Source: an uncultured Clostridia bacterium (GTDB taxonomy: Bacteria; Bacillota; Clostridia; TANB77; CAG-508). From it: DNA of 49,535 nt. Where the stretch lies: positions 1 to 49,535 of the forward strand of contig CALXJQ010000002.1 of assembly GCA_944388665.1 (NCBI GenBank), written 5' to 3'. The notes beneath the pieces are model-generated. The model did not search any database. It was not told the origin of the DNA and saw only the letters and a list, made by a program, of their open reading frames with translations. Made by a program: the position numbers and the translations under genes. Positions 38,353-48,329 of the stretch are shown here, piece by piece (the first letter of the stretch is position 1; each line of letters starts with the position of its first letter).

Positions 38353-38679
38353 TTAATCAGATTCGTCATTATATTCTTTTACCCTTGTATTAACACCGTC
38401 AATAATTTTATATTCTCTTTTTGAATTCTTATAAACCTTTTTTTGCATCTCGTCTTCTAAGTCTACTCCCAAAATTTCTGATAATCCCAATAAATATATT
38501 GCAACATCAGCCAACTCTTCTCCTAAGTCGTCTTTCTTTTTTCTCCACGCCTCATAAGCTTCAGCCATTTCTCCATAAGTTAAGCAGAATTCTTTGTTAA
38601 TATCTGTTACATTAAATCCCTTATCTACTTTATTTTGATATATTTCTTTTTGCAGTTTCTTTAAATCTATCATATTCAT
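38353..38679 (-). CDS. MazG-like nucleoside triphosphate pyrophosphohydrolase
   Basis: LTYGEMAEAYEAWRKKKDDLGEELADVAIYLLGLSEILGVDLEDEM, the EExxE/D-type MazG helix pair. Confidence 0.8.
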   Translation of the reverse strand: MNMIDLKKLQKEIYQNKVDKGFNVTDINKEFCLTYGEMAEAYEAWRKKKDDLGEELADVAIYLLGLSEILGVDLEDEMQKKVYKNSKREYKIIDGVNTRVKEYNDESD

Positions 38680-38685
38680 TACCTC

Positions 38686-39294
38686 CTAATTTAAAAAATT
38701 CATTACTAAATCTATGATTACATCCTTTTCTTTAGGATTTGACTCGGCTATGAGTAATGTTAATGCAGCTAATGTGTTATTGTCAATTGTTTGTTTTCCA
38801 TTTTTATATAAAATTCCGTAGAAATTTAAGAAATATATAAACAATGTAGCTGCAATTCTTTTATTTCCATCTGCAAATACATGATTCTTAACAATTAGAT
38901 ATAGAAAGTTCGCAGCTTTTTCTTCTATACTCTTATAAATATCGTGTCCGTCAAAGCTTTGATAAATATTTCCTATTATTGACTCTAATCCATTATCTCT
39001 TTCTATTGCAAATAATGAACTTTCTTCATTAAATCTTAATTTATTTATAATTTCTATACAATCTTTATACTCAATTTTTCTTTCATCAATATTTCCTTTT
39101 ACTTTTTTTAGAGTTCCATGGTCATAATCATCTAATAAATCTAAAGCTTTTGAATATTCGCCAATTACTTTTAATATTTCTTTAGCATCAGAGCCTTCTA
39201 GTCTTTCATCGATTCTATTAGCAATATCAATTAATTTTACTGTTTTTTCTAAATATTCTAGTCTTTTTTGATTGACTGCATATCCTTTTAACAT
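38686..39294 (-). CDS. RhuM-family / Fic-DOC domain protein, N-terminally truncated
   Basis: Fic-type motif HVFADGNKRIAATLF. The frame stays open upstream to 39354, encoding AKSKNGVIFRKWATKVLKDYMLKGYAVNQKRL, the RhuM core motif. The usual ~130 N-terminal residues are absent. Confidence 0.7.
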   Translation of the reverse strand: MLKGYAVNQKRLEYLEKTVKLIDIANRIDERLEGSDAKEILKVIGEYSKALDLLDDYDHGTLKKVKGNIDERKIEYKDCIEIINKLRFNEESSLFAIERDNGLESIIGNIYQSFDGHDIYKSIEEKAANFLYLIVKNHVFADGNKRIAATLFIYFLNFYGILYKNGKQTIDNNTLAALTLLIAESNPKEKDVIIDLVMNFLN

Positions 39295-39325: not shown

Positions 39326-41117
39326 CTAAAAATTACACCATTCTTTGATTTTGCTCACCCTATCTGATGACAGGTCAGTATTAAAAGAATTTTCAAGGTC
39401 TGATGAAATGGTTGGAATGAAAAACTTTTTTTTGGATTCTCCTATTTGACTATTTAAGAAATATATTTCAATGTTCTCTCCATCACCATAGATTTTTTCT
39501 ATAAATAAGCCTACAATATCTCTTTTAGTTTTTAAATCAAATGTATGGAATATGTCGAAAGAATTATCAATAACTTTTAGCAAATCTTTTGCTGTTTGCA
39601 TTTCAGAATTATTATTAATCTTTGTTTTATTTTTTATATTTGCTATTTGTGTTTCTAAATTTTGTTTTTGTTCTTTTAATTCTCTCAACTTATAATTTAC
39701 CATATCTATTAGATCAATGTCAATATACTGTAGTTTCTCTACTAATTTGTCAATTTCTTCTTTGTTTTTATTATATGCATTTTGTAAGAACTCTAATTCG
39801 CTATTAGAATTATCGTTATTCTTAATTGATGCTATTTTTTGAAGTTCTTTATATATTTCAGAATTAGGAACAAAAGTATTCTTCATTATTTCAAATACCT
39901 TGTTATCAATTTCACTTCCAACATTTAGGGATTGACACTTATGTCCTCGTGATTTTTCTTTTAAGTTACAACAGTATCTATAATAAGCATTTCCATCTTT
40001 ATCTGCTTTTCCCATATTTTTCGCTCTCATAAGTGAATTACATCTTTTACACCTTAATAAACCTGTTACAATAGTATTAGTCTTTTTCAATATGGCTGCT
40101 CTATATTTCTTATCAGCATTTTTTTCAATAAGCATTTGAACAGCAACCCAATCTCTCCCGTCAATAATTCCTTGATGCAGACCAACTGCAATTATCCATT
40201 CTTCTATTGGTTTTTCTTTTCCCCCATACCCACTTGTTTTGTTGTATGTCAAAAAACCGTATTTGCCATTATTATTTTTTCTGTCATCATCTTCACGGTA
40301 AATAAATATTCCTTTTGAATTAAAATACTCCATTGTATCATTGTCGTTTTTAGCATATACTGGATTTGTAAGTATTTTTCTTATAGCACATATTCCAAAA
40401 TATACCCCCTTTCTTGTTCTTATATTATTATTCATTAAATATGTCAGTAATTTTGACATTGATTTTAATTCTAAAAATTTAGCAAATATTAATTTAACCT
40501 TGCTTAATTCTTCATCATTTATAACAAGTTTAGATGCGACTTTACTTTTTTTAGATATACAGTCCTTATCTTCCTCACATACCTCTACTTTTTTATATCT
40601 TTCTGTGCTAAATCCGTAAAGGAGCTTCGCCTCCTAACCATGTACCTGTTTTTGATAATTCAAATAAGTTATCTCTAATTCTTTCTGCAATTACTTCTCT
40701 TTCTAATTGTGCAAATACAGATGCTATATACATCATAGCTCTTCCCATTGGTGTTTTAGTATCAAATTGCTCTTTTATTGAGATAAACGAAGTTTCTAAT
40801 TCATTTAATTCATTCATTAAAGAAGAGAAATCTGCTATATTTCTACTAATTCTATCTAATCTGTAGCAAATGAGAATATCATAAGGATATTTTCTTTCAT
40901 CTTCTAAAAAATCTTTAAATCTTGGTCTATCTAAACTTCCTCCTGAAAAGCCTTCATCTTCATATATTACAATTTCTACATCATATATATCTTCTGGATA
41001 ATTTCTTTTTATATATTCCTTTGCAAGTTCAATTTGGTTTCCTACTGAATCTCCTTTATCTGTATATTTTGATTTTCTTGAGTATATCGCAATTCTTATT
41101 TTTATTTTTTCGTTCAT
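39326..41117 (-). pseudogene. large serine recombinase interrupted by a 1-nt frameshift near 40617-40620
   Basis: AAGGAGG precedes ATG 41117. IAIYSRKSKYTDKGDSVGNQ (catalytic Ser), ICYRLDRISRN, then ...GTWLGGEAPLRI-stop. Deleting one T gives GGEAPYGFSTERY..., continuing into ORF 39326..40459. That part has a recombinase domain, the zinc ribbon CKRCNS...CCNLK...HKC and a coiled coil. Confidence 0.8.
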
Positions 41118-41357
41118 TTTTGCCTCCTTTTTTATGATTTTAAAAAAGGAGGCTTGTCTATTCAAATGTATAAAATTAACTGTTTTTTAATAATTGTAGA
41201 ATTGACTTTAATATATTTTCTTTATCAGTTTTTGTTATTGGTAAACTCTGCACATATTCTTTTATTAAAATCGCTTTTACAAAGGCAAGATTATGTATAT
41301 ATGCATCACTTCCTTGATTATCTATTTTTATATTCATCTTCTATCATCTCACATAAA

Positions 41358-41789
41358 TTATCTTTCTTTTCCTCTATTCTCTTTTCGTTTTGCTTTTACT
41401 TTCTCTTCCATTTCAAAAAAACTTCTCAAAATTCTATAATTAATTTTTCCAGTTTCTCCTAATGTTGTAAATCTATCTCCTATTGAAATTACATCAACAT
41501 CATTTGCTAATGCTTTATCAATAAAAGAGAAATAATCTTTTCTATTATTTCCTAAATGTTTAAATTTAAGTAAAATCACAATATCTACCAACTTATTTTC
41601 AATTAATCTATTTATTTCCTTTATTTGTTCATTATCTTTTTTTATTTTACCAGTATAAAGATAAATATGTTGTAAATTCCATTCTTTGTTATTTGTTTGT
41701 TCTATAAAATTTTTAATATTTTTTATGGCATTTTCCCCTGTATTTATTCCCATATCCGAAAAAAAGCCATAGGCAATTACTCTTTTCAT
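41358..41789 (-). CDS. stand-alone resolvase-like domain protein with degenerate catalytic residues
   Basis: KRVIAYGFFSD corresponds to the resolvase YARVST motif. VDIVILLKFKHLGNN corresponds to DxxxVxxLDRLGR, with both Arg lost. ISIGDRFTT...GKINYRILRSFFEMEE matches the core fold. There is no HTH or recombinase C-domain. Confidence 0.6.
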   Translation of the reverse strand: MKRVIAYGFFSDMGINTGENAIKNIKNFIEQTNNKEWNLQHIYLYTGKIKKDNEQIKEINRLIENKLVDIVILLKFKHLGNNRKDYFSFIDKALANDVDVISIGDRFTTLGETGKINYRILRSFFEMEEKVKAKRKENRGKER

Positions 41790-41791
41790 AT

Positions 41792-42388
41792 TTACCTACC
41801 TTTCTTTATTATATTATCTGCTTGTTTCTCTATTTCTTCTGGTGAATATAATTCCATTAGCGTTAATATATATTCTCCAAACAATTTATTGCTTATCTCT
41901 AAATTTCCAGTGTTTTTCAAATACTCTTTTGCTACAATTCCATAAGATGAAACTTGTTTTCTAGTAATAAACTCTGTTTTTTCTTCTTTTTCTAACGCTA
42001 ATTTTTCAAAATACTTCGCATCTTTAAGTGCTTTATTCAAATCTATACCTAATGCAATGATAATACCTATATCGATTTCTTTCATATCATTATTTCCAAT
42101 GTGTCCAATATAATTTCTTATTCTTGATTTATCTATTACTCTTATCTGTTCTAACAAAATTAACGAATCTTTAGGTAATCCGTTACTTTTTTCATCTATA
42201 AAAATGTGTGTGGGTAATTTTGATTTAACTTTTACTTTACTTGTAATTGGTGCAATTATAACTGTTGGACTGTAAAGATTTCCTACATTATTTTGTAAAA
42301 TAACAACTGGTCTAATTCCTGTTTGCTCGCTTCCTACTACATCTTCATTTAAAACTGCATAAAATATATCTCCTCTATTTATTTCCAT
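41792..42388 (-). CDS. MazF/PemK-family endoribonuclease toxin with ~85-aa C-terminal extension
   Basis: RGDIFYAVL...GSEQTGIRPVVILQNNVGNLYSPTVIIAPITSK...KLPTHIFI...GLPKDSLILLEQIRVIDKSRI is canonical MazF. Residues ~115-198 are an additional K/E-rich helical region. Confidence 0.85.
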   Translation of the reverse strand: MEINRGDIFYAVLNEDVVGSEQTGIRPVVILQNNVGNLYSPTVIIAPITSKVKVKSKLPTHIFIDEKSNGLPKDSLILLEQIRVIDKSRIRNYIGHIGNNDMKEIDIGIIIALGIDLNKALKDAKYFEKLALEKEEKTEFITRKQVSSYGIVAKEYLKNTGNLEISNKLFGEYILTLMELYSPEEIEKQADNIIKKGR

Positions 42389-42539
42389 TTTTTCTTTTTT
42401 CCTCCCATTCTTTTAAATATTTACTTTGTTCTTTGTTTTCATATTCTATTTCTTGTTTTGTTTTGCTTTTGCTACTTCCTAAAATAATAAGATATGTAAA
42501 TATTGCAATAAGTATCATAATAAAAAGTATTATTTTCAT
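42375..42539 (-). CDS. 54-aa protein: N-terminal TM helix plus charged tail, overlapping the mazF-like start
   Basis: AAAGGAG precedes ATG 42539. MKIILFIMILIAIFTYLIILGSSKSKTKQEIEYENKEQSKYLKEWEEKRKNGNK. Its stop lies 14 nt inside the MazF-like ORF, suggesting translational coupling. Confidence 0.45.
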   Translation of the reverse strand: MKIILFIMILIAIFTYLIILGSSKSKTKQEIEYENKEQSKYLKEWEEKRKNGNK

Positions 42540-42898
42540 TTTCTAAACTCCTTTTTTACTTAAGGCTATCTATTAAAAATTAAATAGATAGCCCTTTATT
42601 ATTTCTATCTTTCTCCAAAAAATTCATTAAACGGCATTTAGCAAATGCTCCACAGGACTTTCACCTATCTGCTTTAACAGACTTGCTCTCAATGCGTGGG
42701 ACGGTTTTATCTCGCTCGTGCTATGACTGAACAAGTGTATCATTATACCCACTATTCATTATCGCCTTATGAGCTGCTATACTCATATTTAAGTTAAGTA
42801 GGTTGTAAATCTACTTTTTAACTAGCTCCTAATAGTAGGAATGTATTTAATGAATTTGTATTCAATTTTCAAAGTTCTTATCTTATTTCAACTAAAAC

Positions 42899-42937
42899 GA
42901 AACAAGTGAAAAAGTTTTAACCTCTTTCACTTGTTTC
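42899..42937 (-). terminator. terminator of the sigma-r4 gene
   Basis: A 13-bp stem GAAACAAGTGAAA / TTTCACTTGTTTC, followed on the minus strand by GTTTTAGTT. Confidence 0.6.
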
Positions 42938-42979
42938 CTAACTAATCGTCAATTTTGCAAGGCAAATTTTAAAATTTTT

Positions 42980-43456
42980 TTAATTTTTTAAAAATTTTCG
43001 TATATTAACTATTCCTTTTCGTATAGTTTCACTTACAGCTTGGTGTGATGTTTTCTCTAATTTTGCAATTTCTTCTACAGTTTTATCTTCAAAATAGTAT
43101 AGCTTTATTCTTCTTTTTTGAACTTCTGATAAACAATTAATTGCCTTTTTTAATTGCTTGTTTGTTGTATTAGTTTCTACTATTTCTTCTACATCTACAG
43201 GCTTATGTAATATTCTTTTATTTAAAGTGTTTTCAAATACTTCTGAATGTTCTATATGATTATCGTATTCATTTAATTCTGATAAGTCATCTAATTCAAA
43301 TTGATTCATTGCTTCATATATTTCTTGACCTATCTTTATAATTTGTTTATGTCCTTCCCCATCTTTAAATATTGCATAATATGTATTATTTTCTTCATCA
43401 TGCAATAAAGTATATGGATTATCTTTATATTTCCTTCTTTTTGGTCTTTTCGCCAT
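42980..43456 (-). CDS. sigma-70 region-4 (HTH) domain protein typical of Firmicute mobile elements
   Basis: CLSEVQKRRIKLYYFEDKTVEEIAKLEKTSHQAVSETIRKGIVNIRKFL is a region 4.2 HTH. The N-terminal half is unrelated to sigma region 2. GGAGGT RBS. Confidence 0.7.
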   Translation of the reverse strand: MAKRPKRRKYKDNPYTLLHDEENNTYYAIFKDGEGHKQIIKIGQEIYEAMNQFELDDLSELNEYDNHIEHSEVFENTLNKRILHKPVDVEEIVETNTTNKQLKKAINCLSEVQKRRIKLYYFEDKTVEEIAKLEKTSHQAVSETIRKGIVNIRKFLKN

Positions 43457-43922
43457 TATTATTACCTCCGTTCAATTTGCTTGTTTGTGTGCAAATTGAA
43501 CAGAGGTGGACTACGGCAATGTTTTTCTTTTAGTAAATAAAAAAAATCAAATGCACAGTATAACACTACACATCTGATTTCCTTAAAAGAGCATAAAATG
43601 CCAATATAATGAATATCTGTTAATATTAAATTGTGTTTTTTTACCGTTATTGTTTCATACATTGGCAAAACTCCCTTGTGAATTTTGCTTAAACAAATTC
43701 TCAAAGGAGTTTTTATAAGGGGATCAATTTAATTAATCAAAGTCTAAAAGATTTAGTAAGTCTTTTGTTTCCTTAAAATCTTTTGTAATTCGCCTCCTTA
43801 AAGACTTTGATTAAGTTAGCATGATTATATAAAGATTTTTGCTTTTTTGATGAAAAGGGCGAAAAAAGGCTATAAAACAGCTAAAAAAGGCTACAATCAA
43901 CTGTCTTTTTTTACCAATTCTA

Positions 43923-43951
43923 TTGTGTTTACATAAATTATATGATATAAT
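43923..43951 (+). promoter_or_regulatory. promoter of the Spo0A-like gene
   Basis: TTGTGT, a 17-nt spacer, then TATAAT with an upstream TG (TGATATAAT). Confidence 0.45.
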
Positions 43952-43995
43952 AGTAACGAATTTTATTATAAAAAGAACATTTGTAGGAGGTTACA

Positions 43996-44712
43996 ATGCG
44001 AAAAGTGCTTATTGCTAACCATGATATTGACCAGAATAAGCAACTCTGCCAATATCTTACAAATGATAAAAGATTTGAAATAACCGAAACAACAGATGGA
44101 AAAAGTACATTGAATAAATATCTTGAAATAAAGCCAAATGTTTTAATTTTAGATACAAATTTTAAAGATATGAATTGTATTGAAATTATTAATAGACTTT
44201 CAATGACTATTGAAGAAAAAAGAAACTGTAATACTATACTTGTAGTGGATAAGTCAAACGAAAATATTAAAATTACCAATATGGCAAAAGTATATAAGGT
44301 AATTGAATATTCTGATTTAGACGATTTATTTAATACAATTAATGAGATATGCTCTTACTCGGAATATGAGGAATTAACTGAATTCGACATTGATAAGCTA
44401 TTCTTGAAATTAAAAATTAAACTAAACTCTAATGGTGCTGATTATTTAAGAGAATCAATTACTCAATGCTATTATTATCCGAATTTATTGAAAAAATTAG
44501 ATGATATTTTCTTTATGCTTGCCAGAAAACATAATAAGACAAATGATGCAATTAGGTCTAGTTTTAGGTCAGCATTAGAGCCTTTAAATAACTTTAGAGA
44601 TACGATTGATTATCCAATTATGAAATATTTTGATTATGGTTGTAAAATTACCCCTCAAAGATTTTTAGAAATTGTTGTAATGTATTTACACATAATAAAA
44701 AATAAGAAATAA
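43996..44712 (+). CDS. Spo0A paralogue: degenerate receiver domain plus Spo0A_C-type DNA-binding domain
   Basis: AGGAGG RBS. N-terminus KVLIANHD...KPNVLILDTNF...ILVVDKS has REC layout with the acidic DD pair replaced by NH. C-terminus GADYLRESITQCYYYPNLLKKLDDIFFMLARKHNKTNDAIRSSFRSALE parallels Spo0A GYMYLREAI...[33 protein letters not shown]. Confidence 0.7.
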   Translation: MRKVLIANHDIDQNKQLCQYLTNDKRFEITETTDGKSTLNKYLEIKPNVLILDTNFKDMNCIEIINRLSMTIEEKRNCNTILVVDKSNENIKITNMAKVYKVIEYSDLDDLFNTINEICSYSEYEELTEFDIDKLFLKLKIKLNSNGADYLRESITQCYYYPNLLKKLDDIFFMLARKHNKTNDAIRSSFRSALEPLNNFRDTIDYPIMKYFDYGCKITPQRFLEIVVMYLHIIKNKK

Positions 44713-44751
44713 ATTGATTTTTTGAAAATTCAAACTTATTTCTTATTTTTT
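44697..44751. terminator. bidirectional terminator between the convergent Spo0A-like and radical SAM genes
   Basis: A perfect 16-bp stem AAAAAATAAGAAATAA (44697-44712) / TTATTTCTTATTTTTT (44736-44751). It spans both stop codons. Confidence 0.65.
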
Positions 44752-44754
44752 ATA

Positions 44755-45933
44755 TTAATGGTTCTCTATATATTCTTTATAGCTTTTCATAATATCGTTA
44801 ATTTCAGAAGAATTTACTGGTTCTGTTACAATAGAATTAAATTTTCTACCTATTATATTATATACCTTTTCTATATCATTATCATTGATGGAATTATCTG
44901 TAATCAAATTGAATACAGGAACATCATTTTTTAAGTTTTCTTTTGTTTTTTCTATCATATTAACTCCTGTTTCAACATCATACTTTGCAAACACCATTTC
45001 AGGTTTTAGATTTACTATTTTTTGGTATGTGTCCTCACCATTTATTGCAGTTCCAACAATTTCTACAAAAGGAAGTTGATTTATTGAATCGACTATTTGC
45101 TCTCTAATTTGTTCTTTGTTATGAGCGATTAATGTTCTAATTTTATTAGATGAATTAATTTTGTCAAAATCTATATAATCTTGTTTTAGAGCATTTGCAA
45201 AATAATGATCCTTTCCGTTTTCAGTTCTAATAACATCTGCATTTGGAAGTACAACTATGCTTTTTTCAAACTCATTTTGTTTTTTATATTCTACCTTTTT
45301 TATATTCTCAAATGTTTTTAAACTTTTAATTCCATTTTCTAATTCTTCTTCCGTTATTTCAAATAGTTTCTCGTTTTCTAATGCCCTCTCTCTTATAGGC
45401 ATAAATTTTAAAAATTTCCACTTTTCAATTTTATAATTATTTAAAAACTCCCCTAATTCTTCTAGTTTATTTACATTTTGCTTACTTACTACCGTATTTA
45501 TTCCAATTTTAATTTTCTTATTTTTTGTTTTTTCTAGCAAATTCTTGATAATTTCAAAATGGTTATTTTCTTTTCCTAAAGCTGTATTTATATCATTTTC
45601 GATAGAATCAATTGACAAATTTATCTCATCTAGTATATTTAATATGTCATCTACATATTCAGTATTATTTTTAGATAAGAATATTCCATTAGTTACAAGT
45701 TTGTTGTGTAATCCCATTGTTTTTGATTTTTTCATCAAATCTCTGACATTAGGATAAAGGACAGCCTCTCCTCCAGTCCATGTAATATGATTAATTCCAT
45801 TCTTTACTAAATTATCTAATACCTTTTCATTTTCACTATAAGACAAATCAGGTATATTAGTGAATCCAAAACAATATTTACATCCTTGGTTACATTTTGT
45901 TGTTATCTTCCAACATACTTTCTTCTTAACCAT
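44755..45933 (-). CDS. viperin-like radical SAM enzyme fused to a C-terminal Spo0A-type pseudo-receiver domain
   Basis: AGAGGA precedes ATG 45933. Matches to viperin motifs: [18 protein letters not shown] (CX3CX2C), [55 protein letters not shown] (cf. RWKVFQ). Residues ~275-392 ([12 protein letters not shown]...[26 protein letters not shown]...VFNLITD...) follow a CheY/Spo0A receiver layout with degenerate acidic pocket. Confidence 0.7.
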
Positions 45934-46021
45934 TTTAATCCTCTTTTCATATATAAAATTATACATTAATATTATATATGAGTTTCATAGAAAATACTAT
46001 TCTAAGATTTTTAAGGATTGT

Positions 46022-46063
46022 TAAAAAAAGCATAACAAAAAATATCCTATGTTAAGGATATTT
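46022..46063 (-). terminator. terminator after the LysR gene
   Basis: AAATATCCT / AGGATATTT stem overlapping the stop codon, followed on the minus strand by T-runs. Confidence 0.55.
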
Positions 46064-46938
46064 TAATGTTTTAAATAATTATTAATAAATTCTTTATCTG
46101 CTTTTGTCAGTTCGTCTTTTAAATGAATTAGATTTAATTTAATACTTGGAAGCTCTATTGGTAATTCTACTTCATATAATTCATTATTATCTAATTCTGC
46201 CTTTACTGCTTGTTTTATTACATAGGCTATACCCATATTCTTTTTAACTGCTTGAACTCTTATTTCTGTAGCATCACATATCATATTTGCATTTATGTTT
46301 ACATTGTATTTACTTAATATCTCTTTTAACCTTTTTGTTGTTCTTGTATTTTCTAAATTTAAAATGCAATTCAAATTTTCTAATTCGTTTATATTTGAAA
46401 TAGTTAAAGGAGTTTTAGATACAAATATATTATTAATTGTTGCCAACTCTTCACATACAATATTATTAAGTTCTATGGAAACATCTGTTATTGCGAAATT
46501 TATCTCGTGGTTTCTTAACAACTCAAGAATTTTGTTTGTGTCTACTTCGCATATAATTGTGAACTTGATTTTTGGAAAAACTTTTTTTACTTTTTCTATT
46601 TTCTCCATTAAGAAATAACTTGTTAAATGTGATGGACAAGCAATTTTTATATTTGCACTTGACATACTATTTTTATCTTGTGCCATTTTTTCAGCAAAAT
46701 CAAAACTTGAAATAGATTTATGCACTATTTCATATAATTCTTTACCGTTTTCCGTTAATGTTACACCTTTACTTTCTCTGTTAAATAATATCAAGTTTAA
46801 TTGTTTTTCTAAATTTGATATTTGCGTACTTATATTAGCAACAGATAATCCGTCTAGTTTATCAGATGCTTCATTATAACTTTTTGATTCTGCAACTTTA
46901 CAAAAAATCTTATATAAATTCAAATTCACATTAGACAC
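46063..46938 (-). CDS. LysR-family transcriptional regulator
   Basis: N-terminal wHTH LYKIFCKVAESKSYNEASDKLDGLSVANISTQISNLEKQLNLILFNRESKGVTLTENGKELYE and a C-terminal substrate-binding fold. GTG start. Confidence 0.85.
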   Translation of the reverse strand: MSNVNLNLYKIFCKVAESKSYNEASDKLDGLSVANISTQISNLEKQLNLILFNRESKGVTLTENGKELYEIVHKSISSFDFAEKMAQDKNSMSSANIKIACPSHLTSYFLMEKIEKVKKVFPKIKFTIICEVDTNKILELLRNHEINFAITDVSIELNNIVCEELATINNIFVSKTPLTISNINELENLNCILNLENTRTTKRLKEILSKYNVNINANMICDATEIRVQAVKKNMGIAYVIKQAVKAELDNNELYEVELPIELPSIKLNLIHLKDELTKADKEFINNYLKH

Positions 46939-46961
46939 TATAACATCATCTCCACGATGTT

Positions 46962-46990
46962 ATTATAACATATTATGTTAATTTTGTAAA
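46962..46990 (-). promoter_or_regulatory. promoter of the LysR gene
   Basis: On the minus strand: TTTACA, a 17-nt spacer, then TATAAT. Confidence 0.45.
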
Positions 46991-47026
46991 GATTTAGAGC
47001 TTGTCTATTGCCTTTTATATGAATTT

Positions 47027-48106
47027 TTATGTATTTTGTTGTTTTTTATACCATAATTCTGCTTTTCTTATATCATATTTTGTTCCAGTTTTTAGTTTAA
47101 ATGACTTCACTAATTCAATTAAGTTTTTAATTTCTTTTTCGTCAGGATTTTCTTTTTTAGTTTCTATTTCTAAAAATATTCCTAAATGATCAATAACTTG
47201 TATAAATACAATATAGTTTTCATTTTCGTAACGATAGTTTTTATCTATCATTCTTAAAAATCTAGTAAATCCTAAACTATTAAGCAATTTTTCGGCATTA
47301 TTTATATCATCTATTTTTAATATAGTTTTTTCTGTTCCTATTTCAAATCCTTCAGAATTATACGCTCTCTTTTTAGAAATAATTTGCTTATCGTTATCAT
47401 TGGTATAACGAATAATTAGTGTATCTGTTATACTGCCATTTTGTGGTACATATTGTTTTGTTTTTTGGTTACACATATAAATATCATCTAAAGTAAATTC
47501 TTCAACATAATTGAAATTATTACTTTCTAACTTCTGTTTAATACTATCTAATTCTTCAAATACTTCACAAGTAATTTCAGTATTATTAATATTTACCTCT
47601 TCCCTATCCTCTGCATTTGTATATAATTTTGATTTTTTTTCTAGTAATACAAAGTTGCAAGAAATATTTGTAAAGAATGGGATTTTTAGTTTAACTACAT
47701 TTCTATATATTTTTTTAGCTTTTGAATAGATTATTTCTTTATTGTCATTTATAAAATCACTTTCTGCTTGTAATAAATCTTTATACTTTTTTCCTCTAGC
47801 ATTAAAGTCTAACAATTGTATAGCATTTAAAGGAACAGGTATCATTTCAGCAAATCTTATTATAGATACATTTTCTTTTTTTCTGTTTTCAACTCGTATA
47901 AAACTAGGATTATCTTTATATTTATTATAGCTGGCTTTATATGAATAAAGAGGAGCAAAATATAAATGATTTTCTACTTTTAATACGATTCCAATATAAG
48001 GTCTTTTATTTTCTTTATTCCAACTTACATGATTATCAAATTGGCTTAAATATTCTATATATTCATCAGCTACAATATAAAATTTTAATGTTTCATTTTC
48101 TCCCAT
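47027..48106 (-). CDS. type III TA toxin (ToxN/AbiQ family endoribonuclease) fused to a C-terminal CYTH (CyaB/triphosphate-tunnel)-like domain
   Basis: AAGGAGAAAAAG precedes ATG 48106. The N-terminal ~165 aa read LKFYIVADEYIEYLSQFDNHV...RPYIGIVLKVENHLYFAPLYS...IIRFAEMIPVP...CNFVLLEKK and match AbiQ/ToxN. The C-terminal ~190 aa read LIIRYTNDNDKQIISKK...LGFTRFLRMIDKNYRYENENYIVFIQVIDHLGIFLEIE..., fitting the CYTH pattern ...LGF...K.R..Y......V.LD.V..LG.F.EIE. Confidence 0.75.
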   Translation of the reverse strand: MGENETLKFYIVADEYIEYLSQFDNHVSWNKENKRPYIGIVLKVENHLYFAPLYSYKASYNKYKDNPSFIRVENRKKENVSIIRFAEMIPVPLNAIQLLDFNARGKKYKDLLQAESDFINDNKEIIYSKAKKIYRNVVKLKIPFFTNISCNFVLLEKKSKLYTNAEDREEVNINNTEITCEVFEELDSIKQKLESNNFNYVEEFTLDDIYMCNQKTKQYVPQNGSITDTLIIRYTNDNDKQIISKKRAYNSEGFEIGTEKTILKIDDINNAEKLLNSLGFTRFLRMIDKNYRYENENYIVFIQVIDHLGIFLEIETKKENPDEKEIKNLIELVKSFKLKTGTKYDIRKAELWYKKQQNT

Positions 48107-48126
48107 CTTTTTCTCCTTTATAAACA

Positions 48127-48160
48127 AAACAGGGTATATTTCTACACCCTGTTTGAATTT
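48127..48160 (-). terminator. terminator between the antitoxin repeats and the toxin gene
   Basis: AACAGGGT / ACCCTGTT stem (48127-48152), followed on the minus strand by TTTGTTTAT. This matches the ToxIN-type layout. Confidence 0.6.
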
Positions 48161-48161
48161 T

Positions 48162-48269
48162 AAATCTCCCTACTCAAGGCAAGGGTTTTCCTAATGTAAA
48201 TCTCCCTACTCAAGGCAAGGGTTTTCCTAATGTAAATCTCCCTACTTAAGGCAAGGGTTTTCCGAATAG
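48162..48269 (-). ncRNA. ToxI/AntiQ-like antitoxin RNA: three tandem 36-nt repeats
   Basis: The plus-strand unit AAATCTCCCTACTCAAGGCAAGGGTTTTCCTAATGT occurs at 48162-48197 and 48198-48233 (identical). A third copy at 48234-48269 has 4 substitutions. The units are head-to-tail with no spacers, directly upstream of the toxN-like gene. Confidence 0.8.
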
Positions 48270-48300
48270 CAACCATAAGATTGCTCTTACTAGTATATTC

Positions 48301-48329
48301 ATTATACAACATTTTTATAACAATGTCAA
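48301..48329 (-). promoter_or_regulatory. consensus promoter driving the repeats and toxin
   Basis: On the minus strand: TTGACA (48329-48324), a 17-nt spacer, then TATAAT (48306-48301). Confidence 0.65.

Follow-up and report, generated by a model that had tools for sequence, protein, structure and literature searches.

A Conserved Island-Borne Cassette Linking a Viperin-Like Radical SAM Enzyme, Degenerate Receivers, a LysR Regulator and a CYTH Domain in Uncultured Gut Clostridia

Do four genes that lie within 4.4 kb of one another on a mobile island of an uncultured Clostridia bacterium belong to a single system, or do they merely share a place where cargo accumulates? The question is raised by a stretch of 49,535 nucleotides (contig CALXJQ010000002.1 of assembly GCA_944388665.1, positions 1 to 49,535, hereafter the window), for which a preliminary description made from the sequence had listed a Spo0A paralogue, a fusion of a viperin-like radical S-adenosylmethionine (SAM) enzyme to a receiver (REC) domain, a LysR regulator, and a type III toxin–antitoxin locus (toxI-toxN) whose toxin is fused to a CYTH domain, and had proposed that together they may form a composite system. 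Open reading frame (ORF), profile and repeat searches recovered all four genes, both fusions and the complete toxI locus at the positions given there, and the features that define the cassette are as follows.

43996-44712, + strand: Spo0A-like regulator of 238 amino acids, with a degenerate receiver and a Spo0A_C-type DNA-binding domain (Pfam, TIGR02875)
44755-45966, − strand: radical SAM plus REC-like ORF of 403 amino acids (ORF listing)
45172-45933, − strand: viperin-like radical SAM domain of this ORF, with the cluster motif CNQGCKYC and the motifs GGEA, LSIDS, NTVV and KWK
44758-45147, − strand: REC-like, putative pseudo-receiver domain of this ORF, with a conserved EMVFAKYD motif (PDB and fold searches, alignment of homologues)
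46063-46938, − strand: LysR-type regulator of 291 amino acids (Pfam HTH_1 and LysR_substrate)
47027-48127, − strand: ToxN plus CYTH ORF of 366 amino acids, called mechanically from a TTG at 48127
47027-47584, − strand: CYTH (triphosphate-tunnel) domain, type B, joined to ToxN by a low-confidence linker (residues 172-177)
47615-48106, − strand: ToxN/AbiQ endoribonuclease domain (Pfam, PADLOC, PDB and fold searches)
48127-48154, − strand: hairpin terminator-like element between toxI and toxN, a 12-pair stem followed by a T-run
48161-48267, − strand: toxI-like antitoxin RNA array, three tandem repeats of 36 nt (ATTAGGAAAACCCTTGCCTTGAGTAGGGAGATTTAC), 97% matches, score 200
48301-48329, − strand: toxI-toxN promoter, TTGACA-17-TATAAT, 12/12 positions of the sigma-70 consensus

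Domain calls combined the ORF listing with Pfam, PADLOC, NCBIfam and PDB searches and with fold searches of AlphaFold models; Pfam applied to the isolated C-terminal halves of the enzyme and of the ToxN::CYTH protein returned no useful match, and NCBIfam, PDB and fold searches were required for these parts.

The strongest evidence that the genes belong together comes from their neighborhoods. Loci were fetched through the radical SAM protein from gut metagenomes and from metagenome-assembled genomes (the latter bearing the labels uncultured Clostridia, Clostridium sp. CAG:354 or UMGS), with human, chicken and rabbit gut among the samples. Ascertainment was via members of the cassette, and a single clade of uncultured Clostridia supplied all loci. 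Full-length relatives of the radical SAM/REC fusion number more than 1200, and a single variant that is 68% identical (P0056) is indexed in 5190 assembly blocks, mostly from gut metagenomes. The arrangement CYTH → LysR → radical SAM plus REC-like ← Spo0A-like recurs in about 45 loci with order and orientation unchanged: wherever a locus was fetched through the enzyme, lysR precedes the enzyme gene and a convergent gene encodes a Spo0A-like protein of 226-273 residues, and nearly all of these loci have a gene of 182-206 codons upstream of lysR. By count, 30 loci combine CYTH, LysR, REC-like and Spo0A-like parts, 8 more have ToxN in addition, and 7 lack CYTH, the others being truncated contigs or lone ToxN-CYTH genes. 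This order is retained at identities of 25-50% for the enzyme, 37-62% for LysR and 24-57% for the Spo0A-like protein, and the backbones that carry it vary, with one or two serine recombinases, a tyrosine integrase in L053/54, and differing chromosomal flanks and upstream cargo. In L040-42, the core is part of a larger operon, and an integrase is absent from the surrounding 7 kb. The cassette is therewith conserved and widespread on integrative islands of uncultured gut Clostridia.

The same loci show that the parts can be rearranged. Most loci have the radical SAM and REC-like parts in one fused gene; in L037-42 and L048 they are separate genes, of which the REC-like one encodes 131-134 residues, and in L037-42 a PfkB kinase gene lies between the two. 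In L026-35, the enzyme domain is swapped for a radical SAM/SPASM-type domain of about 370 residues, while the REC-like tail with its EMVFAKYD motif stays in place, as do the LysR, CYTH and Spo0A-like genes; the L032 enzyme scores 55 bits on the PADLOC model of prokaryotic viperins, in its N-terminal half only, compared to 131-154 bits for the cassette enzymes. Because the gene order survives divergence, change of backbone, fusion, fission and swapping, we favor functional coupling as the explanation of the synteny, and consider it very probable that the four genes act as a unit. Part of the synteny could nevertheless come from shared island ancestry, as the loci lie mostly on related islands. 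We note separately that, in L024 (3460-10000), an insertion of about 6.5 kb separates lysR from the radical SAM/REC gene.

Prokaryotic viperins (pVips) are antiviral synthases of 3′-deoxy-3′,4′-didehydro-nucleoside triphosphates (ddhNTPs), and the first question about the enzyme is how closely it resembles them. Homologues and a ribosome-binding site indicate that it probably starts at the ATG at 45933, giving a protein of 392 residues, the same as homologue P0001. Its radical SAM domain is recognized by Pfam (Radical_SAM, E 1.8e-18), the CNQGCKYC and TGGEA motifs are invariant among 18 homologues, and the first 260 residues match the PADLOC pVip model with an E value of 8.5e-39 and 131.6 bits over profile positions 5-228 of 262. 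All methods rank viperin first among the families, with generic radical SAM enzymes scoring far lower. The AlphaFold model (mean predicted local distance difference test, pLDDT, 70.8) has viperin-like enzymes of T. virens and mouse viperin as its top PDB fold matches, at a template-modelling score (TMt) of about 0.6, which is moderate evidence, and its fold matches also include BlsE and DesII. When aligned with two NCBI-annotated pVips, from Methanomethylovorans and Nostoc, the cassette enzyme keeps the cluster motif, GGE, LS(I/V)DS, LG(K/R), NTVV and W-K. Among plasmid proteins, its N-terminal half alone matches annotated viperins at 22-32% identity, and among phage proteins the search gave just a weak generic radical SAM match.

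The C-terminal part of the enzyme is REC-like: residues 276-392 match the REC domain of VraR in the PDB (E 4.5e-4), and the predicted fold matches AraT/CheY at TMt 0.75-0.82. Across the 18 homologues, the acidic pair is replaced by H-N or similar residues, and the phospho-acceptor position holds Lys or another residue that is not Asp. The convergently encoded Spo0A-like protein carries a second receiver, detected by Pfam Response_reg at E 3.4e-6 (27.6 bits against a cut-off of 30.2), and its N-terminus matches CheY and Spo0A N-domains in the PDB. In the window protein, the acidic pair is N-H instead of D-D, Asp53 is retained and the Lys-Pro pair is lost; in the family alignment, the acidic pair is lost in all members, while the Asp is kept in most and is Asn in several. 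Because the phosphorylation-site residues are degenerate in both families, both domains are predicted to be pseudo-receivers. That the two occur together as degenerate receivers had been proposed in the preliminary description, which had called both Spo0A-type, and their degeneracy and constant co-occurrence are indeed what we find; the enzyme receiver is, however, not specifically of the Spo0A type, and BLASTP of one receiver against the other gives no alignment, for which reason we rejected the idea that they are recent paralogues. Having no detectable mutual similarity, the receivers can be called “paired” solely in the sense of constant co-occurrence.

In the remainder of the Spo0A-like protein, Pfam Spo0A_C is matched at E 4e-4 (20.8 bits against a cut-off of 25) and PDB entry 1fc3 at E 0.095, a family member in L007 reaches 32.1 bits on Spo0A_C and is thus above the Pfam cut-off, and the full-length model TIGR02875 aligns to residues 5-217 with E 1.6e-10 and 40.7 bits, below the orthology cut-off of 200. 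The C-terminal half of the family follows the Spo0A_C pattern, with a DNA-recognition region that differs from that of Spo0A. The window protein is a distant paralogue carried on a mobile island, and not a second Spo0A. A search of the protein against 50,697 phage records found no match.

The gene upstream of lysR provides the link between the cassette and the toxin in the window. This gene of 182-206 codons has no Pfam match, but matches TIGR00318 (cyaB) at an E value of about 1e-13 and aligns with the CYTH half of the window fusion; the possibility that this stand-alone gene of about 190 codons is unrelated to the fusion was rejected on these two grounds. Since the stand-alone upstream genes are CYTH genes, the cassette owns a CYTH gene, and in the window ToxN is fused onto it. 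The window CYTH domain itself matches TIGR00318 at E 7.3e-11 (42.2 bits, below the cut-off of 57.95), as do the stand-alone cassette proteins at 24-49 bits, also below this cut-off, and a PDB search finds the triphosphate tunnel metalloenzyme (TTM) Saci_0718 at E 1.6e-5. The domain is modelled at a pLDDT of about 80-95, and its closest fold is the Sulfolobus triphosphate tunnel enzyme 7ns9 (TMt 0.84, root-mean-square deviation 2.6), with class IV cyclases at TMt 0.64-0.69. There are two subtypes, of which type A is about 25% identical to the window domain and type B, found as a stand-alone protein in L017 and L032-35, is 46-55% identical. The charged strands (IIR, (T/C)K, EK, DK...YE, LEIE and RKAE-type) are mostly conserved across both.

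In the toxin half, the ToxN domain scores 135 bits on Pfam ToxN_toxin (E 3.2e-39, cut-off 25), matches PADLOC AbiQ at E 1.4e-43 and ToxN/AbiQ structures in the PDB at E 1e-16 to 7e-19, and has the corresponding fold at a TM score of 0.82-0.86, in a model of the whole protein with pLDDT 83.5. Homologues and the ribosome-binding site place the probable start at the ATG at 48106 behind AGGAG, for a protein of 359 residues, and the sequence of promoter, repeats, terminator, AGGAG and ATG is the canonical type III layout. Arrays of about three repeats of 33-36 nt lie upstream of every ToxN::CYTH homologue examined, and the repeat stems show compensatory changes across the arrays of the window and of L012-14; a search of the toxI region against Rfam matched no family.

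The ToxN::CYTH architecture is common to about 45 database clusters. A metagenome-contig scan for it gave one near-identical locus, and exact-protein look-ups were therefore used for other lineages. In five of the seven lineages sampled in this manner, ToxN::CYTH is followed by the cassette, and in the other two (L013, L014) it stands alone. In L012, L048, L050 and L053, proteins 52-72% identical to that of the window again accompany the cassette, with partner genes only about 50% identical. Two ToxN subtypes are joined to closely related CYTH domains, which suggests recombination that preserves the ToxN-CYTH combination, and a neighbor-joining tree of the CYTH domains does not separate a single origin of the fusion from several. 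As most cassettes carry a stand-alone CYTH gene, ToxN is no original part of the cassette, and is instead a lineage-specific addition to the N-terminus of the cassette’s own CYTH protein. The membership of the toxin in the composite, as initially described, therefore holds for a sublineage. In addition, ToxN domains about 71% identical to that of the window appear fused to PAS, ATP-grasp and CN_hydrolase C-terminal domains on short contigs (P0159, P0162, P0163), which could be further toxin fusions or gene-calling artefacts.

The LysR protein is a regular member of its family, with HTH_1 at E 6.5e-13 (48.9 bits) and LysR_substrate at E 1.6e-21 (77.1 bits), both over their cut-offs, and is 37-100% identical to the LysR protein at the same position in all cassettes. 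Around it and at the ends of the cassette lie the following control elements.

46962-46990, − strand: promoter-like site before lysR, TTTACA-17-TATAAT with an extended −10 (TG), 11/12 positions
45967-46062, − strand: conserved intergenic control region from lysR to the radical SAM gene, an AT-rich hairpin and T-run followed by a promoter block and ribosome-binding site
44697-44751, no strand assigned: perfect 16-nt inverted repeat AAAAAATAAGAAATAA / TTATTTCTTATTTTTT with a 23-nt loop between the convergent genes, read directly off the sequence
43457-43995, no strand assigned: divergent control region between the Spo0A-like and sigma-like genes, with a conserved promoter block at about 43920-43952
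43733-43814, no strand assigned: 13-nt inverted repeat AATCAAAGTCT ... AGACTTTGATT, its arms separated by about 55 nt, within the divergent region ahead of the Spo0A-like gene
43853-43893, no strand assigned: AAAAAGGCTA direct repeats in the same divergent region

The hairpin after lysR and the promoter block of the radical SAM gene are conserved in an alignment of 8 diverged loci; the terminator scan, which depends on G+C content, had overlooked such AT-rich hairpins, and they came from the alignment and from direct reading. The 16-nt inverted repeat between the convergent genes is a candidate bidirectional terminator, and the inverted and direct repeats of the divergent region are possible operators or structured RNA, with inverted repeats of differing sequence found at the analogous place in other loci. 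Thus, most of the promoters and terminators that had been predicted are present (a 12/12 promoter before toxI, an 11/12 promoter before lysR, the hairpin after lysR and the repeat between the convergent genes), and with separate promoters and terminators in evidence, the earlier view of the locus as a cluster rather than a single operon is sustained, a cluster of separate transcription units being the reasonable description.

The cassette occupies the end of an integrated island that is nearest the recombinase, and the island continues past the window, because a metagenome sibling that is 98% identical (L036) and shows the region past the right end of the window has further genes there. Its surroundings in the window are the following.

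39326-43456, − strand: island backbone beside the cassette, comprising the sigma-like gene, the PemK/MazF-like gene, a resolvase-domain ORF and the split large serine recombinase (ORF listing and Pfam)
42980-43456, − strand: sigma-70 region-4-like gene
41792-42388, − strand: PemK/MazF-like gene with a C-terminal extension
39326-40459 and 40608-41165, − strand: large serine recombinase as two ORFs, a 377-residue C-terminal and a 185-residue N-terminal part, about 150 bp apart
38686-39294, − strand: Fic/DOC protein, matching PADLOC candidate family PDC-S23 at E 4.5e-72 over profile positions 118-324 of 327 only
38353-38679, − strand: MazG-like gene, next after the Fic gene, both just past the recombinase
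1004-2662, + strand: second, intact large serine recombinase of 552 amino acids (Resolvase, Recombinase and Zn_ribbon_recom domains)

Reading rightward from about 38.4 kb on the minus strand, the order is MazG-like, Fic, split serine recombinase, resolvase-domain ORF, PemK-like and sigma-like genes, followed by the four cassette genes, to the right of which a 110-residue ORF, a YcxB-like ORF and a helix-turn-helix (HTH) gene extend up to the window end. An identical backbone order is found in L001-L011, L036-39, L043-44 and L048-54. That this is one integrated element, as had been supposed, is borne out by the serine recombinase at 39326-41165, by the housekeeping genes that fill the window from 3 to 36 kb (aldolase, UvrB, GuaA, SecA, RF2, Rho and a copper ATPase), and by homologous islands that occupy other chromosomal sites. 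The split of the recombinase recurs in the independent samples L036 and L044 and is therefore no sequencing error; the island may be immobilized, or the recombinase gene may be expressed in an unusual manner. The intact recombinase at the left edge presumably marks where a further integrated element ends, most of which would lie beyond the window. A phage origin of the cassette was considered and rejected, as nucleotide searches of phage and plasmid collections, phage protein searches and IMG/VR gave almost nothing: the 4.5-kb region had no nucleotide match in the phage and plasmid collections, and in IMG/VR the cassette is present on one small contig, with the ToxN matches there lacking CYTH.

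Several further observations concern the company of the cassette. In L036 (1239-2686), a 194-residue ORF, a canonical single-domain receiver with the D-D pair, the Asp and the Lys-Pro intact, and an AbrB-like gene lie upstream of the cassette along with more HTH genes, and receivers like this one precede CYTH in L022, L023 and L032-35; together with the Spo0A-like genes, this set resembles the regulators of sporulation initiation. The PemK/MazF-like toxin, extended at its C-terminus by about 90-140 residues and lacking an obvious antitoxin gene, lies between the sigma-like gene and the integrase in the window and in L037-39, L050 and L053-54. An AAA_5 ATPase of about 740 residues, paired with a DUF2201_N/DUF2201 (VWA-like) protein, and two small ORFs lie directly upstream of the cassette in L037-39 and L050-54, preceded in L038 by a reverse-transcriptase fragment. 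Finally, in L043 (15890-18703), L015 and L006, spoIVA is broken off after about codon 410 by the island’s recombinase end, the encoded sequence passing from “...APSIHMIR” into island-derived residues, whereas the gene is intact, including its C-terminal region, in L025 (6217-7563), and the island of L009 adjoins a 55-residue fragment of gpr (Peptidase_A25). The skin elements of B. subtilis and C. difficile are intervening elements of sporulation genes with large serine recombinases, and some members of the island family may be skin-like elements of this kind.

What, then, might the unit do? On balance, we lean toward a transcriptionally gated, nucleotide-modifying conflict module. This proposal draws on the viperin-like enzyme, on the kinase, NTPase and CYTH genes that accompany it, on the recruitment of ToxIN by fusion, and on the toxins and candidate defence genes nearby (the PemK/MazF-like genes, the Fic/PDC-S23 protein and the AAA_5 plus DUF2201 pairs). 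The earlier suggestion of a nucleotide theme gains plausibility from the variant clusters, in which PfkB kinase, thymidylate kinase and NTPase_I-T genes are found in place of CYTH and point to nucleoside or nucleotide chemistry; the MazG gene cited in its favor exists 6 kb away, but lies beyond the recombinase and is no conserved neighbor of the cassette.

In such a module, a modified nucleotide or nucleoside would be made or processed. The viperin-like enzyme, expressed from its own conserved promoter under the control of LysR and/or the Spo0A-like protein, would modify the sugar of a nucleotide-type substrate, and the CYTH tunnel would bind, hydrolyze or cyclize a triphosphate. The pseudo-receiver of the enzyme and the Spo0A-like protein would not be phosphorylated in the normal manner, and would act as protein–protein or ligand-dependent regulators. 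The purpose would most likely be an island conflict function, anti-phage or abortive infection, although a role in defence as such we put forward only tentatively. In the window, ToxN::CYTH would add an RNase arm, the release of which from ToxI is perhaps tuned by the CYTH ligand. A more elaborate version, in which the two dead receivers form a partner switch that couples the state of the viperin-like enzyme to transcription, while CYTH serves as a triphosphate sensor for that chemistry and, in lineages where it is fused to ToxN, gates the RNase directly, we consider decidedly unlikely.

A number of results weigh against this reading of the function. The top NCBIfam match of the enzyme is viperin_w_prok (NF038283), but at 117.9 bits it falls under the cut-off of 180, and of the ten nearest 50%-cluster representatives that were tested, nine do likewise, at 124-170 bits. 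In the alignment with the two annotated pVips, N-x-H is changed to C-W-K/N, the Lys/Arg before GGE to H/D, and the Lys of K-I-N-T/S-V to G/R/N, while the RGG...W tail is absent, as the cassette enzymes stop before it and are about 30 residues shorter. In mouse viperin–CTP structures, these changed or lost positions contact the nucleotide. Judged by its residues, the enzyme probably does not handle its substrate as viperin does, and the cassette enzymes would make up a peripheral, C-terminally shorter viperin-like clade. With the score below the cut-off and the pVip motifs missing, ddhNTP synthesis is conjectural, and the residue data do not support a ddhNTP product. The viperin identity given in the preliminary description thus stands as the best profile and fold match, but not as membership of the annotated family (118 bits where 180 are required). 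In L026-35, it is exchanged for unrelated SPASM-type enzymes, the best matches of which are peptide maturases, and which weaken a strictly nucleotide reading. Similarly, the first strand of CYTH reads EITV(K/R) in type A, EITCE/Q in type B and EITCE in the ToxN-fused domain, and in none of them ExExK. Because of this deviation, catalysis is uncertain and ligand binding is the safer inference, such that the domain may bind without catalyzing. Furthermore, the lone ToxN::CYTH genes of L013 and L014 are toxIN-type loci among housekeeping genes, which argues that ToxN::CYTH does not require the product of the radical SAM enzyme, and PADLOC has no model that matches the LysR, Spo0A-like or CYTH parts.

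Developmental control is the last of these points, as the many regulators and the insertions of some islands beside sporulation genes suit it equally well, and control of sporulation or of island excision is accordingly the main rival. Here, the Spo0A-like factor, with the upstream REC and AbrB-like genes, would tie expression or excision of the island to the sporulation decision of the host, or would manipulate that decision, and the enzyme and CYTH would make or destroy a signal read by LysR. The interrupted spoIVA genes of L043, L015 and L006 and the gpr fragment at L009 recall skin-type elements, the cassette adjoins the sigma-like, small-ORF and recombinase module across a common divergent control region, L036 and L032 carry a canonical Spo0F-like REC gene and an AbrB/SpoVT-like gene, the load of regulators is heavy, and mobile elements of gut spore-formers do carry spo0A homologues (PMC10294663). 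We nevertheless judge this account unlikely. Most islands, that of the window included, lie outside sporulation genes, and family members are flanked by, among others, def, tyrS and Q-salvage genes; in its DNA-recognition region the Spo0A-like protein departs from Spo0A, and TIGR02875 gives it 41 of the 200 bits needed; and the recruitment of a viperin-like enzyme, kinases and RNase toxins would be left unexplained.

The model advanced in the preliminary description, in which the receiver pair relays a signal that turns on a true pVip to make ddhNTP, and CYTH senses or processes the ddhNTP to license ToxN, agrees with the co-occurrence of ToxN::CYTH and cassette in five of seven lineages, with the viperin-like fold of the enzyme, and with the triphosphate-tunnel fold of CYTH. 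It conflicts with the absence of ToxN from most cassettes and the presence of ToxN::CYTH without the enzyme, with the enzyme’s missing motifs and low score, with receivers that are not mutual paralogues and of which neither has an intact phosphorylation site, and with the lack of linkage to MazG, so that as a general account it appears to us improbable; for the ToxN-bearing sublineage only, it is possible.

One might also view the locus as a small set of biosynthetic genes for a natural product of nucleoside or peptide type, whose pathway LysR and the Spo0A-like protein would regulate, with an unrelated addiction module, ToxIN, inserted alongside. The larger operon of L040-42, which adds a glycosyltransferase, a TupA-type ATP-grasp protein, a thymidylate kinase, transporters, NTPase_I-T and an MccF-like S66 peptidase, would fit this view, as would the likeness of the L032-type enzyme to SPASM peptide maturases and the fold matches to BlsE and DesII. 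Yet on most islands the four genes stand by themselves, accompanied by neither a precursor peptide nor a transporter nor tailoring enzymes, and an in-frame ToxN::CYTH fusion that is kept at 50% divergence speaks against a random neighbor, making this proposal very improbable. Last, independent defence or regulatory genes at a shared cargo hot-spot, which the separate promoters and terminators and the variable neighboring cargo could suggest, and which had been offered as the alternative to a composite system, are scarcely credible and largely contradicted by the fixed order and orientation in about 45 loci at 25-50% identity, with different integrases and through fusions and fissions, a recurrence that is no chance grouping in a defence island.

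If the cassette is a working unit, it would extend bacterial viperin-type chemistry to a regulated multiprotein architecture, with pseudo-receivers, a Spo0A-type factor and a LysR sensor not previously linked to viperins, and would be the first case found in which a type III toxin carries a fused nucleotide- or triphosphate-binding domain, suggesting direct small-molecule input into the release of ToxN. Were the partner-switch version true, it would describe a multipart, island-borne immune or developmental circuit without a described counterpart and very common in human and animal gut Clostridia. Given its abundance, a role of the cassette in phage resistance, competition between mobile elements or control of sporulation would bear on the ecology of uncultured gut Clostridia, and the spoIVA-interrupting members would provide a new instance of intervening elements with a bearing on development. 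The domains all come from known superfamilies, and what is new is the cassette and its two unusual fusions; annotation by automated tools would probably read “viperin” plus “AbiQ” and overlook this architecture. In line with its characterization as previously undescribed, the literature searched contained nothing that links viperin or ToxN with CYTH, prokaryotic viperins with receivers, or CYTH with anti-phage activity.

Comparison with known systems makes the likenesses and the differences concrete. The islands share with skin elements a large serine recombinase at the island end, which in L043, L015 and L006 interrupts spoIVA, but differ in that most members, as in the window, are not inserted in sporulation genes. 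For the Spo0A-like gene, the nearest published parallel found comes from phages that infect human-gut spore-formers and are reported to carry receiver-less spo0A homologues (Schwartz et al. 2023, PMC10294663): both cases place a Spo0A_C-type domain on a mobile element of gut Firmicutes, free of normal phosphorelay control, whereas here a full-length degenerate receiver is kept and always paired with a second pseudo-receiver on an enzyme. With the CYTH/TTM enzymes (CyaB, Saci_0718, ThTPase), the cassette CYTH shares the eight-stranded tunnel fold and the charged strands, and departs from them in its first strand, which reads E-I-T-x-K/E and not ExExK, in its scores below the TIGR00318 cut-off, and in its occurrence as a cassette gene or toxin fusion. 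The toxin locus resembles ToxIN and AbiQ-antiQ in its ToxN_toxin fold, FAPLxSxK motif, approximately three 36-nt repeats, strong promoter and internal terminator; the canonical toxin, however, is a single domain of about 170 residues, whereas here the protein has 359 residues with a C-terminal CYTH domain of 190, its repeats have no Rfam match, and the locus occupies the CYTH slot of a larger cassette. Finally, the enzyme shares with pVips the radical SAM core (CxxxCxxC, GGE, LS(I/V)DS, NTVV and W-K) and a location on mobile islands, and the kinase genes beside its split variants recall the class of “pVips associated with kinases”, but it is set apart from them by its fusion to a pseudo-receiver, by its place among LysR, Spo0A-like and CYTH genes, and by its exchangeability for a SPASM-type enzyme within an otherwise constant cassette.

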